The translations under genes and the position numbers were made by a program. From positions 82,212,001 to 82,276,000 of the forward strand of contig OZ024741.1 in the NCBI GenBank assembly GCA_964016885.1: a stretch of 64,000 nucleotides of DNA. Reading direction: 5' to 3'. A model generated the notes under the pieces. It was not told the origin of the DNA. It worked only from the letters and a program-made list of their open reading frames with translations, and ran no database searches. This document shows positions 1,368 to 63,640 of the stretch, piece by piece. How positions within the stretch are numbered: the stretch's first letter is position 1; the number at the start of each line of letters is the position of its first letter. The DNA comes from Eledone cirrhosa (lineage: Eukaryota).

Positions 1368-1851
1368 CTGTATATAATCAAAGATTAATGTGGTTCGTTG
1401 ATTATTCAACGAATACAATTTTACAATAGATTAGAAGCACTCGACATAGATTTTCCTGGAATTATTTAATATCATTCCAGATGTTAATAAATGAAAAATA
1501 TTCTCATAATCAAAATATATATTTTATTATACATATTCCAAAGGTACAATTCTGTGGCGTAGAACATTCGTGTATTTATATCTAGGTATGTGTGTGCGCT
1601 TGTTATATACGTATTTATTTATTTATATACATTTATATAATTATTTATTTATTTGTATACACGCATAAACACTCACACATATTTATATGTGCGTGGTTTT
1701 GTATACCTATGGTAAGGTTTTGCGTATGCTTGTGTATGTACGTTTTTGTTTGCGTGTATGTATTTATTTATTTCTATTACTTCTATATTGTATTTATTCA
1801 CTTTGTTCTTAACTCTGTAGCGGAGATTCATTTGGTCTCCTAGTTAGAATT

Positions 1852-2120
1852 TTAGTCTACGACTTCTGCTATACCATTTACGTGGTTTTGTCTTTGCGTG
1901 CCATTGTTCTCCACGCTCCACATATGACGTATTATCTTCGTTTTTTCGTTCATTGCCAGAGAACGTCTCTCTGCACCACCTAAGAGAACATTAGTCTACG
2001 ACCTCTTTTATACCATAAACGTGGTTCTGTCTTTGCGCGTAAATGTTTTTCACCGCTCCTATTAATGACGTATTATTCGTTTTTTCCCGTTCTTCGCCAG
2101 CGAACGTTTCCACGAACCAA
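1852..2120 (+). repeat. Diverged tandem duplication, unit about 139 bp
   Basis: ttagtctacgac...tatacca...acgtggtt.tgtctttgcg...atgacgtatta...gccag.gaacgt occurs at 1852 and again at 1991. Confidence 0.85.
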
Positions 2121-2624
2121 AGTATCGTCTTCCTGTCTTCCTCCGGTTGCAACGTTTTTTGAAATATCCAGTTCTGCGTTTACAGATTGACTTTGTTAGT
2201 TTCAGAAGATCCCGTTAAGGGTGAAAGCAGCGATTCTTTGCTTAAAAATTTTATCTGTTATTTTAATAAATATATATATATATATATTTCGTTTCTGATA
2301 TATATATATATATATATATATACAATGCATGTATATATATATATATAACCTCTGTTTTTAGCCTAAGAAAATATCTAATAAATATATATATATATATTTA
2401 TATATATATATATATATATTTATATATATATTTATATATATATATATATATATATATATATATATATATATATATATATATATATATATAAATATATATA
2501 TATATATATATATATATATATATAAATATATATATATATATAAGAAAATATCTAATAAATATATATATATATATATATTTCGTTTCTGATATATATATAC
2601 AATGCATGTATATATATATATATA

Positions 2625-3270
2625 TATTACCTCTGTTTTGAGCCTCAGAAAATATCTATATGCGTGTGTAATTTATACACGCATATATTTATTTTTTTTA
2701 TTTCAATTGTGTTCTTAACACGTTGGATTGATAATGTTTTCGAAAAAACTGATTAACCCGCGTGTATATTATTTTTTTCCCTCCTTTCGTGGATCGTAGT
2801 TGTCTCCCCTTCCCGCTTAGTGACGCTATAATACTTCCTCAGTCAAAAACTGCTGGAATTTCAAATTTGCCGGTCATTCAATGCGGGAAGGACCAACTTA
2901 ACGGACACGATTTTTAACTGTCGTAAGAAATGTTTTTCTTATATCAAAGTTTATTGGGCTTCCACTGATGATTTATAAGCGCCCACCTAAATATATTCTT
3001 ACATGAATGTATATTAGGCTTCTACATAAACTGGAAATATTCTCCGAATTTGTAGAAAACTAATAATGAAACAATTGTTTGGATGAGAGATATATTTTAA
3101 CTTTAATTATATCTCATAAAATAATACAACTGGCTTTTCCACATAATACATATTGTTACCACCCCAAACACTTAAATTGGGTTTATATTAAAATATAGCC
3201 TAATGTTTGTTGAGTGAGATGGTTACCAGTCAGAGATTAGCTTTAAACTATCTCTGTTATTGTATTAATT
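2625..3270 (-). repeat. Inverted copy of the unclassified ~1 kb repeat at 21348-22490
   Basis: Reverse complement matches 21348-21985, e.g. gactggtaaccatctcactcaacaaac, ataaatc.tcagtgga.gccca.taaactttgatataaga, attacacacgcatatagatatttt. Confidence 0.88.
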
Positions 3271-5279
3271 ATATATATATATATATATAATATATATGTA
3301 TGTGGGTGTGTATGTATATGTGTGTGTGTGCGTGCGTTTGTGCGATTGTAAACACCTGAACATTTTACCGACTTCACGAACCTTTAACAGACCATGTTAA
3401 TATAGCCACTTACTGAAACCTTTTGTTTGCTTAGAATAAATGAATCTTGGAATTCAGAAGTATCCTTCTGTATCACTATGTATTTTTCTCTCCATATTGC
3501 TTTTTCAAAGAATCCCTATTCTTTATATCCACAGCCAATGTCCTCCACCCATCCTCTACCACTAGAAAATGTATAAATATCACCATATCACATTGACAGT
3601 CGGCTTTCCTGATGATTTCTTTCGACTGAAACTGTTCAAGTCCCGTATAAGCCATTTCTATATTAACATATATGCACACACACACACACACACACACACA
3701 CACACACACACACACACACACCCACATATATATATATGTATATATATTATATATATATATGCGTGTGTGTGTGTATGTATATATACACACAGACATGCAG
3801 TCATGAGGGGGCGGTATCGGTATGGGTAACTGGCTGGGAGCTGGGGGGGGGGGTTAAGTGTGTATGTATGTATATAGTGAAGTAAGAGGAACATTATTTA
3901 GAATGCCGTAACTAATATTGGAATCTTAGTAGACAATGAAATATTACATATTGAAGTATATATATATCTTATTTCTGTCATACATCGTCGTGTCAAATTC
4001 TGTTGTATTTTGTATTGATGTGCATGCTTATATTTTTGGAGTAAAAAACAAAAATGTTATCACCATTTTAAAAACTATGGAATTTACTTACTATATGGAA
4101 CCACTCAAACAGTGAGAAAGGAACTCTTTCATTAGCTGGTTTATATATATATATGTGTTTATGTTAGTAGACATTGCGATGAGAGTAGATCACTTTAAAG
4201 AAACATTTAGAGTAATATAATGTGACACCTCGCATTTCCAACTTCAAAACTGCTTTTCCTTACCTCAGTCATTTTAAAGTGTTAGAAAATAAATTTGCAT
4301 CGTTTTAATTTAGTATACCGTCTCTCAACGAGACATTGATAAGGGGTTTTGATAAAAAGCTGTTAACATTTAGTGATATAAATTTGATTATCAGGAACCA
4401 GAAAAAAGATTTGCTGGAAGTATTGATTTCCAACACAGTTAAAATATCATTGAATTTTCGTGAAAAGTTCAAAATACAAAAGTGTGACGTTTCTTTCTTT
4501 TTCAAGAGCAATTTTACAAAATTGGAACAGATACAATAATCAAATATCGGCCATTCCCGTTACTCTTGTTTCTGCCTACTATTTACCATTTACCTATTGG
4601 TCATGATCGATTAGAGAAAGCCGCTACAAATGCACATTAGAAAAAGAACACTGGAAATTGTATCACAGTAAAGTAAGGAAAATATAAGAAAAACACCAAT
4701 TTACACTTTTACATTGTGCTTCATGTAAACTATACAGCTTTTGTCATCCATACAAATCTAACAATTATCGTAAAAACTATAGTTATTTTAATGAATAAAA
4801 TATAACCTCAATAATTTTGTGAAATGCTCTTTGCTTTCTGTTTCATAAATCTAAAATCTAAATTGAGCTGTTTTAGCTTTTTTGAATGATATGCAGTTCT
4901 TGGATTGAGTGAAAAAACATGAGTTGTAACTATCCCAAGGCCTTGGATGAATAATAATTGCACCCCACAGGGTAATTGCTAGAAGTAAACGTAATGAGAA
5001 GATTTAACCCAGCCTTCTTGCTTACAATGTGAAAAACATTTTCATGGTCCAATTATATTTATCCGCACTCACACACATGAACATCCCCACATTCACACAC
5101 CCAAATCAAATTTCTGTCATCAAACCCATTACATGTAATGAAATGATGTATTTCAAATGTATGGATCAAACATTGCACTGCTCTAGGGAATGTAAAGCTG
5201 TCCACCGAAAAATAGAATAAGCCTGTACCCATATACAAAAGCTACCGTGTTATGTATTGAACATTTGACGGTTCCTACA

Positions 5280-5571
5280 ACGTGTGTTCCAGTTGTTTGA
5301 TCAACGAAACAGCCTGTACTTGAAATAACGTGCAAACATTTGAGCATTATACAGACACATATACCTTTAATTTAGTTCTCAGAGAGATTAATCGTGACAC
5401 AGTGTGTGAAAGCCTGCCTTTTTCAATTACAGGTACAAGTCTTTTCTTTTTCTCGGCTTAGAACAACTGAAATAAACTGCTTTATTTCAAGGCACTAAAT
5501 GACGCTGAGAATTGAAATCACGACCTTCTGGCTGTCATCCAAGCGCTTTAAACAGTAAACCACGCGCCCCA
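5280..5571 (-). mobile_element. Degenerate tRNA-derived SINE
   Basis: Minus strand begins gtggggcgcgtggtttactgtttaaagcgc...ggtcgtgatttcaattctc (decayed A/B boxes); related head on + at 28714. Confidence 0.55.
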
Positions 5572-62030: not shown

Positions 62031-62922
62031 CATAAAAGAGGGACATCCCTCTAACTATATAAACCTCAATCTAGTTAGAAAAATATAAAAACAATCTCTT
62101 CTCAACATATATATGTATATTAATAACCTTAAATTACCACACTAATAATGGAAAGATATGCTGATGTGAATAGGTGCAAATATGCGATAATGAATGTGTC
62201 TAAAAGCGACCATAAGTATGTGTATATATGTGAAAATGTATATAAATAAGTAAATATATATATATGTTTGATGTGTATAGTTAGATGTAAGTGTACTCAT
62301 GTGTTAAAATGCTTATATATATATATATATATATATATATATATATATATATATATATATATATATATATATATATATATATATATATATATATATATAC
62401 ACATAGACTTGAGTATGTATGTATATATGTGTGTGTCTATACGTGTGTATATAAAGATAAGTTGAGTATGAAAATGTATACACATGAACGCGTATATATG
62501 TACATGTATATATGTGTGTATATATATATGTATGCATGTGTATATGTATCTAAGTATGAGCATGTAAGTATGTGAATGTGAGTATATATATTTTGTAGAG
62601 GTGTGCATATATGTTTGTGTGTGAATGCGTGGGCGAAAGGATACGTACACTTGAAAGAAAAATTTAAGTCTGAATGTTAATTAAGTGCAAACATAAAACC
62701 AACCACGCATATCTATACTATCTCTAATCCTTCTATAGATTTAGAAAAATAACCAATAATATATTCTATAAAAATGTCAAAACAACAGATGGGAATCTAA
62801 TTACTCACTGCCACCAACAATTCTCACTGCTAGCAAAAAACCACTCCCTCAACTATTCTTCTAACAACTTCACCCCTCCCTCCTAATATTCTCTATAAAA
62901 ACCAAACAGGTCCTCAGTAAAA

Positions 62923-63043
62923 TTATTCCGATGAAATGACAGTTGATAATAACATTGAAATATTGAATGTCTGCATAACTAATAATTTGTAGATAGCAGC
63001 TATTTTCAGGTTATGTAACTGTTATAGAAACACGTGTCAATAA
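62923..63043 (+). ncRNA. Hammerhead-like motif with CCGAUGA core, extended stem II and palindromic loop III
   Basis: TTATT-CCGATGA-aATGACAGTT...(~70 nt)...AACTGTTAT-a-GAA-AC-ACGT-GT-C-AATAA; predicted cut after 63038; the mirror copy at about 58435-58556 has GAAT. Confidence 0.7.
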
Positions 63044-63235
63044 ATTCCTTTCAACTAAACTGTATCCATTCAAATCTTTCTATTTTTCTCCGGATTACTT
63101 TTGGAACTACAACTGGAACCGTCGAGCAAACTCTACGTGAGCTGTCCATCTACTGTGTGTAATATTTATATTACAACACTACGGAAAATACTATATATAT
63201 ATATATATATATATATATATATATGTATGTATATA

Positions 63236-63413
63236 TGCGCTATCGTTTTTAAAGTAGTGACCTATGTTACTTAATTCTTTATATATGTGAGTGACTGTGT
63301 GTGTGTATGTATATATATATATATATATATATATACATACACACACAGACACACACATATATATATATATAAAGAAGTAAGTGATATAGTCACTACTTTA
63401 AAAACGTTAGCGC
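63236..63413. repeat. ~45-bp inverted repeats bracketing a TA/CA microsatellite
   Basis: gcgctatcgtttttaaagtagtgacctatgttactt / aagtgatatagtcactactttaaaaacgttagcgc. Confidence 0.8.
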
Positions 63414-63499
63414 GATGTCTTCAAAATGGTTTTACTTAAACATACGGTATATTACCGAATATACTATACATACATTCATATATACATATATATATATAT

Positions 63500-63640
63500 A
63501 GATGTTTATTAAAATAACAGATTAAAGTTTAAGCAAAGAATCGCCGCTTTCACCCTTTCTACGGTTCTTATATATTTGATATATACTTATCCTTATCGAG
63601 CCCTCTTTGGATTTTAGTCTTCAAATTCATTATTATTACT
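63500..63640. mobile_element. Short TA-flanked repeat; left part is the reverse complement of 2210-2270
   Basis: tttattaaaataacagat...tttaagcaaagaatcgc.gctttcaccctt; right part contains tcgagccctc. Confidence 0.65.

Follow-up and report, generated by a model that had tools for sequence, protein, structure and literature searches.

Hairpins, twinned in related loci, beside the ends of Hydra-clade Penelope-like elements of Eledone cirrhosa

Penelope-like elements (PLEs) have been known for years to leave fold-back insertions and a tail on one side only, without a sequence rule for either. What sets their ends is the question raised by a stretch of 64,000 nucleotides (nt) from Eledone cirrhosa (assembly GCA_964016885.1, contig OZ024741.1, positions 82,212,001 to 82,276,000; here called the window), which is AT-rich animal DNA packed with (TA)n and retroelements, and in which a first-pass annotation had noted a 10-mer, TYGAGTRCTY, in the tails of otherwise dissimilar PLE ends. 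The 10-mer turns out to be one strand, the 3′ one, of a bulged stem-loop, RCTC-[variable stem-loop]-TY-GAGY-RCT, which in related loci is typically present twice (as H1 and H2), and in one clade both element ends can be predicted, with an error of a few bases, from a conserved, duplicated structure. Such elements and tails were known before; the twin-hairpin rule for the ends appears to be new.

Motif, families and a covarying hairpin

Direct inspection of the sequence finds all eight exact sites of the first-pass annotation (6262, 25811, 26669 and 27254 on the plus strand; 1435, 35030, 36659 and 37247 on the minus strand) and its three looser ones (27714 on the minus strand; 63122 and 63596 on the plus strand). 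TYGAGTRCTY occurs nine times in the window against 0.62 expected, a count that none of 100 shuffles reaches. The ninth match, 42218 on the plus strand, had not been listed; it lies inside an unrelated ORF (open reading frame; 40920–43556) of a non-LTR element (one without long terminal repeats, LTRs) with no (TA)n end nearby, and looks like chance. The eight exact matches represent five families, because the ends at 6262, 25811 and 37247 are 85–87% identical and form one family (family A), and 26669 and 27254 belong to one repeat (84% identical). Two further copies of family A (35512, 35747) read CTGAGTATTC at the motif. The repeat at 26669 and 27254 matched neither the PLE ORFs of the window nor any of 103 related loci, and could not be assigned to PLEs.

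It is highly improbable that the motif reflects residual homology or chance. Such a reading could point to the three exact matches in one family and the two in another, as well as to the chance match at 42218; it is refuted by the cross-family flanks, which are unalignable, and by the enrichment, strand bias, duplication and covariation (the latter in 64 clusters) described below. With the motif masked, z exceeded 3 in only one downstream and three upstream comparisons among 62 cross-family flank pairs, the upstream flank being where the 5′ strand of the hairpin lies.

The YRDD elements that carry the motif are assigned to the Hydra clade of PLEs on protein motifs, not on a tree. This clade is defined by RWK-type and DKT motifs, a CxCX5C linker and a CxxC/CxH pattern in the endonuclease (EN), according to the description available (Craig et al. 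2021, PMC8557442). Two single ORFs in the window (22423–24570, ORF A, and 60106–62020) include a C-terminal GIY-YIG EN, with EN columns conserved in 70 relatives. ORF A carries RWR and DKT (R8, W9, D88, K89 and T90 conserved in the 70-protein alignment), the linker cysteines C543, C545 and C551, and a CxxC/CxH pattern around E and N (C641, C644, E647, N660, C669, H671), with no CCHH. Hammerheads are found in the pseudo-long terminal repeat (pLTR), with 72 in related loci and others, by eye or regular expression, in window families A, B, E and 35030, of which A, B and E have variant cores. Insertions into (TA)n are seen both in the window and in loose-end contigs. Pfam named no family for the Hydra ORFs.

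Copy-level statistics were drawn from related loci and from contigs of sequencing runs. The loci were gathered by protein search and then by the 70-protein alignment, and comprise 77 metagenome loci (from the best 80 of 206, confirmed) and 26 genome-bin loci, together 103 loci and 348 kb; a search of viral contigs gave no relative. The 26 contigs in bacterial genome bins (L078–L103) hold animal-type Hydra PLEs and (TA)n, and are probably host-derived contamination.

In these loci the hairpin consensus is GCTC-[inner]-TY-GAGC-RCT, with ACTC/GAGT in most window families. The 9-mer T[TCA]GAG[CT][AG]CT has 154 matches, compared with 22.9 in 20 shuffles, and RCTC lies 4–40 nt upstream of 101 of the 154 against a background of 19%; many of the remaining 53 are antisense readings of the same near-palindrome or of codons. 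The inner part between the 5′ and 3′ strands varies from 4 to 33 nt. An alternative structure, a pentaloop hairpin that closes on TYGAG, was rejected because it suited no families other than A and 35030, and a 46-sequence alignment was set aside, its 5′ strands being out of register.

Covariation was assessed on sites picked by sequence alone, one per cluster, giving 64 clusters (29 H1, 22 H2 and 13 untyped). Inner positions of H1 are paired in 29/29, 26/29 and 21/23 cases; re-dealing the partners gives means of 22.4, 15.0 and 10.3 (0 of 2000 shuffles each). The register with a 2-nt bulge pairs at 118 of 135 positions, while bulges of 0, 1, 3 or 4 nt give 30–54. Among 20 hairpins of inner length 10–12 (of 22, one duplicate and the poorly pairing L055 being omitted), 26 double changes were counted against 7.5 expected (0/500), a count that kinship between sequences can inflate, and the covariation score of 0.445 compares with a maximum of 0.149 when the strands are slid. 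Double changes are also seen in the outer stem, in L078, L082 and the window families, and L077 has a wobble there.

A covariance model from which all window sequence was kept out picked up 52 matches in 30 other loci, some of them kin of the training set. It gave eight matches in the window, including those at 25811 and 37247 (E values in the list below), 35030 (0.5) and, weakly, 63731–63774, 17336–17378 and 27714; two of the eight are probably chance. It missed seven earlier sites (36659, 63122, 1435, 6262, 26669, 27254 and 63596). Among the 150 of 174 Rfam matches listed, all under the gathering score and driven by microsatellites, no meaningful family fell at the hairpins.

Two further pairings can be drawn. 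The 3′ strand with its flank is a near-perfect palindrome in the loci and could pair between two RNAs, and the 3′ strand of H1 could pair with the 5′ strand of H2 in a switch-like manner.

Hairpin placement and element ends

The hairpin sits outside coding sequence. Of 90 full matches, 77 are in sense orientation within 600 nt of an ORF, with six antisense, four at ORF edges, two far away and one in a coding interior, 181 kb of coding matches having been surveyed. Tandem junctions show the order hammerhead, 38–61 nt (n = 24), H1, 55–65 nt (n = 14), H2 and start codon, with H2 mostly 11–42 nt ahead of the first ATG. Leaders (n = 36) hold two hairpins in 23 cases, one in five and none in eight, several of the latter being, by eye, inverted junctions, truncations or variants. 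Of 61 clusters, 48 have TAT or ATA at −9 to −3 before the stem; the counts for windows farther upstream are 18, 8 and 8.

The hairpin can also be traced in published consensi. In the PMC8557442 supplement, six variants of the 9-mer gave seven matches, four in the untranslated ends of six Hydra consensi, and line breaks may hide others; the other three come from the files for Naiad and Chlamys, which are far longer, and seem to lie in internal sequence. By eye, the hairpin is visible in Hydra-2_Amil and Hydra-2_Ajap, both copies are present at the start of Hydra-1_Ajap, and variants occur in Hydra-1_Amil, Hydra-1_Crog and Hydra-1_Obim. Outside Hydra, the comparison extends to the three non-Hydra tails of the window and no further into Poseidon, Neptune and Nematis: the motif is absent from the YVDD and YLDD tails, as had been reported, and likewise from the tail at 34037–34100.

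Element ends follow the hairpins. Of the ends joined to (TA)n, 155 in all, 21 were alignable to a hairpin-bearing read-through copy, and 15 of these were flush and represented 12 distinct hairpins (7 H1, 5 H2). Ends at a TA-like patch just 5′ of H1 are short ends, and those at the patch 5′ of H2 are tailed ends. With 1–7 nt of TA microhomology allowed for, 11 of the 12 hairpins agree with a junction 6 nt 5′ of the stem; ends of element B and of the 35030 family, 3–6 nt from the stem by eye, fit the same rule. Since short ends abut H1 and tailed ends abut H2, the tail is the H1-to-H2 interval. In keeping with this, H1 mostly lies 51–68 nt from (TA)n, as predicted by the H1–H2 spacing minus 6–8 nt. 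The motif copy within a tail marks the short-arm end; what marks the tailed end is a second copy, which stays behind on insertion.

The sites in the window are as follows.

22503..25866, plus: Hydra-clade PLE family A, 5′-truncated; ORF to 24570; long 3′ untranslated region; tailed end
25679..25772, plus: family A's hammerhead motif, type I, with a U3-A8 core variant, by eye; predicted cut after 25767
25785..25787, plus: TA-like patch, family A short-arm junction, from end alignment and loose (TA)n ends in 4 of 4 runs
25793..25820, plus: H1 of family A (earlier 25811); covariance model E 1.7e-5
25788..25866, plus: family A tail, probably the H1-to-H2 interval; H2 itself absent from the window
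37247..37274, minus: H1 of family A fold-back copy 37202–37701; covariance model E 9e-4
6244..6271, plus: decayed H1 of family A fold-back copy 6113–6316; 5′ strand mutated
35512..35539, minus: H1 variant, family A copy 35466–35664, by sequence comparison
35747..35774, minus: H1 variant, identical duplicate copy 35701–35899 of family A, by sequence comparison
35030..35058, minus: H1 of a second family, 6-bp inner stem; short end in copy 36365–36546; hammerhead upstream
36659..36702, minus: H1 with 30-nt inner part in fold-back element 36610–37077; Hydra reverse transcriptase (RT) fragment; no hammerhead seen
27714..27737, minus: H1 in fold-back element 27675–27835; short end 12–17 nt upstream, an exception to the 6-nt rule
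63087..63133, plus: H1 variant of Hydra element B (58395–63191), pairing by eye; short end 58395 lies 3–6 nt upstream
1435..1462, minus: probable H1, tail fragment inside a non-LTR element; no short arm visible
17337..17368, minus: probable H1, overlooked earlier; weak covariance match, E 5
63731..63764, minus: probable H1, overlooked earlier; (TA)n-flanked tail-only fragment; weak covariance match, E 2.7
26648..26678, plus: like-shaped hairpin in the repeat that matched no PLE; second copy 27233–27263
63596..63605, plus: loose 3′-strand match 44 nt before (TA)n; 5′ strand doubtful

In family A, contigs turn to (TA)n right after 25787, 5 nt before the stem at 25793 (62, 3, 62 and 1 contigs in four runs, which represent at most three samples and two studies, one possibly the source of the window). 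For this family the tail is probably the H1-to-H2 interval as well; window-family tails, at 78–108 nt, are longer than those in other loci. The Hydra elements here have two precise ends with a tail on one side, and all seven independent fold-back Hydra insertions in the window have, by eye, a short end paired with a tailed one. No clear motif match was seen in one YRDD family (tail copies ~38053–38153 and ~52173–52296). As a separate observation, a full-length copy at L085:3779 joins (TA)n at the first bases of H1, which could be a preferred 5′ stop; contigs L008, L012, L017, L021 and L088 begin at or inside H1, either for that reason or through assembly breaks, and were excluded from end mapping.

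The spacing reported earlier, with the motif 23–40 nt from the short-arm end and pointing towards the element end, is borne out. The positional constraint, however, is to the 5′ base of the stem (the 6-nt offset) and not to the 10-mer. The earlier reading, of a quasi-palindromic double-stranded site, GAG-YR-CTC, bound by protein and cut at a distance as by I-TevI, has in its favour that the 3′ part is nearly palindromic and often matches both strands, and that the sequence is strongly conserved. It is nevertheless very unlikely: the distance from end to motif is not fixed but varies over 16–40 nt and tracks loop length, the partner strand lies 4–33 nt away and the inner part covaries as a helix, and a bipartite, covarying stem-loop with variable spacing argues against such a site.

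Placement ahead of the ORF is compatible with a different role, in which the hairpins serve transcription, translation or RNA processing in the leader and ends adjoin them because the structure exposes an AU-rich stretch. The short distance between H2 and the first ATG agrees with this, as does the location of PLE promoters at the pLTR–ORF border in the account available (PMC8557442). This role is quite an unlikely explanation of the ends, which track both hairpins at one offset while the hammerhead distance varies (38–61 nt); H1 is moreover retained in a fold-back element without most of the ORF and with no visible hammerhead.

Priming on RNA or cutting of DNA

The reading favoured here, with a probability of roughly 0.6, is that each hairpin positions a protein on the RNA for cDNA priming from nicked (TA)n. 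In transcripts, H1 and H2 lie downstream of the hammerhead and ahead of the next ORF copy's start codon, each after a short UA-rich patch. The RT-endonuclease would bind the hairpin on the RNA and, as the target suggests, would nick (TA)n; the nicked 3′ end would then pair with the UA patch 3–8 nt 5′ of the stem, and cDNA synthesis would begin about 6 nt from the stem base, the geometry of the mapped ends. With a start 5′ of the stem, the positioning hairpin would therefore never be copied. A start at H2 would yield a tailed end containing H1 and a start at H1 a short arm, and one event using both sites on opposite target strands would produce the fold-back with a one-sided tail that is observed. 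The first-pass proposal of a clade-specific cis signal, tied to element ends, stands, the clade being Hydra; RT or EN would be its putative binding partner.

RNA positioning of target-primed starts is favoured because the Poseidon element PAc shows two internal RNA initiation sites that bound the tail (Frangieh et al. 2024, PMC11167929). In the available text of that study, RNA 3′ of these sites is required, the hammerhead is dispensable and a dimer is predicted.

In a competing explanation, the hairpin acts as single-stranded DNA: in a tandem or cDNA intermediate, the GIY-YIG domain binds it on the sense strand and makes a cut some 6 nt 5′ of it, after which (TA)n is joined to the ends so produced. 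The GIY-YIG nuclease SsnA has this geometry, binding a single-stranded DNA hairpin and cutting a few nt upstream, in the account seen (PMC11893778), and a TA-preferring EN would also account for the TA patch. Craig et al. ascribe the tail to EN-mediated resolution (PMC8557442), and earlier work, as cited in PMC11167929, found that the Drosophila virilis EN needs the tail for recognition. The comparison of sense and antisense strands is neutral. SsnA is, however, a stand-alone bacterial protein of another GIY-YIG subfamily with a hairpin of fixed sequence, and in the only purified PLE, RNA initiation sites alone match genomic ends, as far as that report goes (PMC11167929). DNA cutting is accordingly rated unlikely, and priming on RNA remains preferred.

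Several results weigh against this preference. H2 covaries at the first inner pair alone (22/22, then 11/20 and 7/11), and among 92 first outer pairs five are A-C and three G-T. Folding energies are almost the same in sense (−4.84) and antisense (−4.95) and wobbles are few, so that RNA and complementary DNA are not told apart; the folding energy of five regions does not stand out from that of shuffles (z 0.93 to −1.49), as would be expected of weak hairpins, and the minimum-energy fold of family A prefers another local stem over H1. Only 21 of the 155 (TA)n ends were mappable, and six of the 21 were not flush, lying 0–11 nt from the stem; the offset has exceptions at 27714 (12–17 nt) and L015 (11 nt). 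Thirteen of the 36 leaders have one hairpin or none, and no H2 was seen for any window family, nor a family A leader, among 24 of about 1000 loose-end matches.

The arms of the fold-back Hydra derivative at 36610–37077 extend from an RT fragment up to a point about 35 nt short of H1, and no hammerhead is visible. The deletion is common to both arms, which hints that H1, and not the ribozyme, is needed for mobility.

In telomerase, an RNA element bound by the protein places a few template bases for pairing with the primer. The likeness of the Hydra hairpin to this alignment region and to the stems bound by RT is an analogy only; TERT is the best fold match of the Hydra protein (structure model of ORF A, pLDDT (predicted local distance difference test) 90). 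A tentative extension would be a two-headed, telomerase-like insertion, in which two subunits sit on H1 and H2 of one RNA, each priming nicked (TA)n at a UA patch with cDNA starting 6 nt from the stem. Any upstream RNA might then be inserted at (TA)n by a cassette of about 100 nt, and the tail in all PLE clades might be the spacing of two docking elements.

The twin hairpins may be what a compact (~700 aa) enzyme for RNA-templated insertion requires in cis. For the sister group of telomerase reverse transcriptases they supply a minimal template together with exact mutants; they also make the RNA-priming and DNA-cutting models separable in one experiment, and give annotators a boundary rule for Hydra elements.

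Known systems and other elements in the window

The present elements resemble the published Hydra clade in protein motifs, (TA)n target, hammerhead and the hairpin visible in its consensi, and differ in having tails of 55–110 nt instead of the 30–40 nt given there (PMC8557442). The main text of that paper contains the word 'hairpin' 0 times, and its available description of Hydra gives no hairpin or tail rule. PAc shares the two starts bounding the tail and an AT-rich target; it belongs to another clade, however, its starts sit in an AC-rich stem-loop inside the ORF, and its available description reports no duplicated positioning element or primer-pairing patch (PMC11167929). At Terminon/Athena 3′ ends, as far as they are described in the text consulted, a short stretch downstream of the hammerhead likewise pairs with the priming DNA end, but it is a reverse telomeric repeat exposed by the ribozyme fold (PMC6431247), whereas in Hydra, whose elements bear an endonuclease, it would be a UA patch positioned by a hairpin that is distinct and duplicated. 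Ssn nucleases, with their NTS hairpins, share with Hydra the GIY-YIG domain, a hairpin with a conserved 3′ flank and an event a few nt 5′ of the stem; they are bacterial, stand-alone and without RT, and DNA cutting, demonstrated for them in the account seen, is hypothetical for Hydra (PMC11893778). No account of the hairpin, single or twin, turned up in full-text searches, Repbase and the 2004 and 2006 Penelope papers lying outside the comparison.

The hammerheads of the window include core variants: U3-A8 in family A (25684–25690), a variant described previously (PMC4209133, available text), and CCGATGA (U4 to C) with a long loop II in elements B (~62929) and E (~40657). The family A motif was not reported among the 150 of 174 Rfam matches listed, and its predicted cut lies only 25 nt before H1. 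A compact canonical hammerhead at 19227–19260 on the plus strand, antisense to Hydra element F, probably belongs to another PLE fragment. The end piece of element F (20733–20861, plus strand) shows a possible variant hairpin with a longer bulge, about 124 nt from (TA)n. A non-LTR element that has gone into (ATT)n splits the ends of element E (38053–38236, 40720–40803, 52173–52296), whose tail has no clear hairpin.

Outside the recognised Hydra elements, the YVDD element and the 34037–34937 fold-back family share a stretch that ends at short-arm ends (33940–33968, 29115–29150, 34910–34937, 34085–34115) and is possibly the end signal of another clade; farther inward the two are 71% identical along about 145 nt, and their tails, about 50 nt long, lack the Hydra hairpin. 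The direct repeat 26552–26741/27137–27337 (84%) has an H1-shaped hairpin but neither a PLE ORF nor a clear hammerhead; it could be a non-autonomous parasite of Hydra elements. Short interspersed element (SINE)-like repeats are dispersed at 17369–17540, 18195–18364, 44816–44872 and 53727–53856 (84–92%), and one copy cuts off the sequence upstream of the hairpin at 17346.

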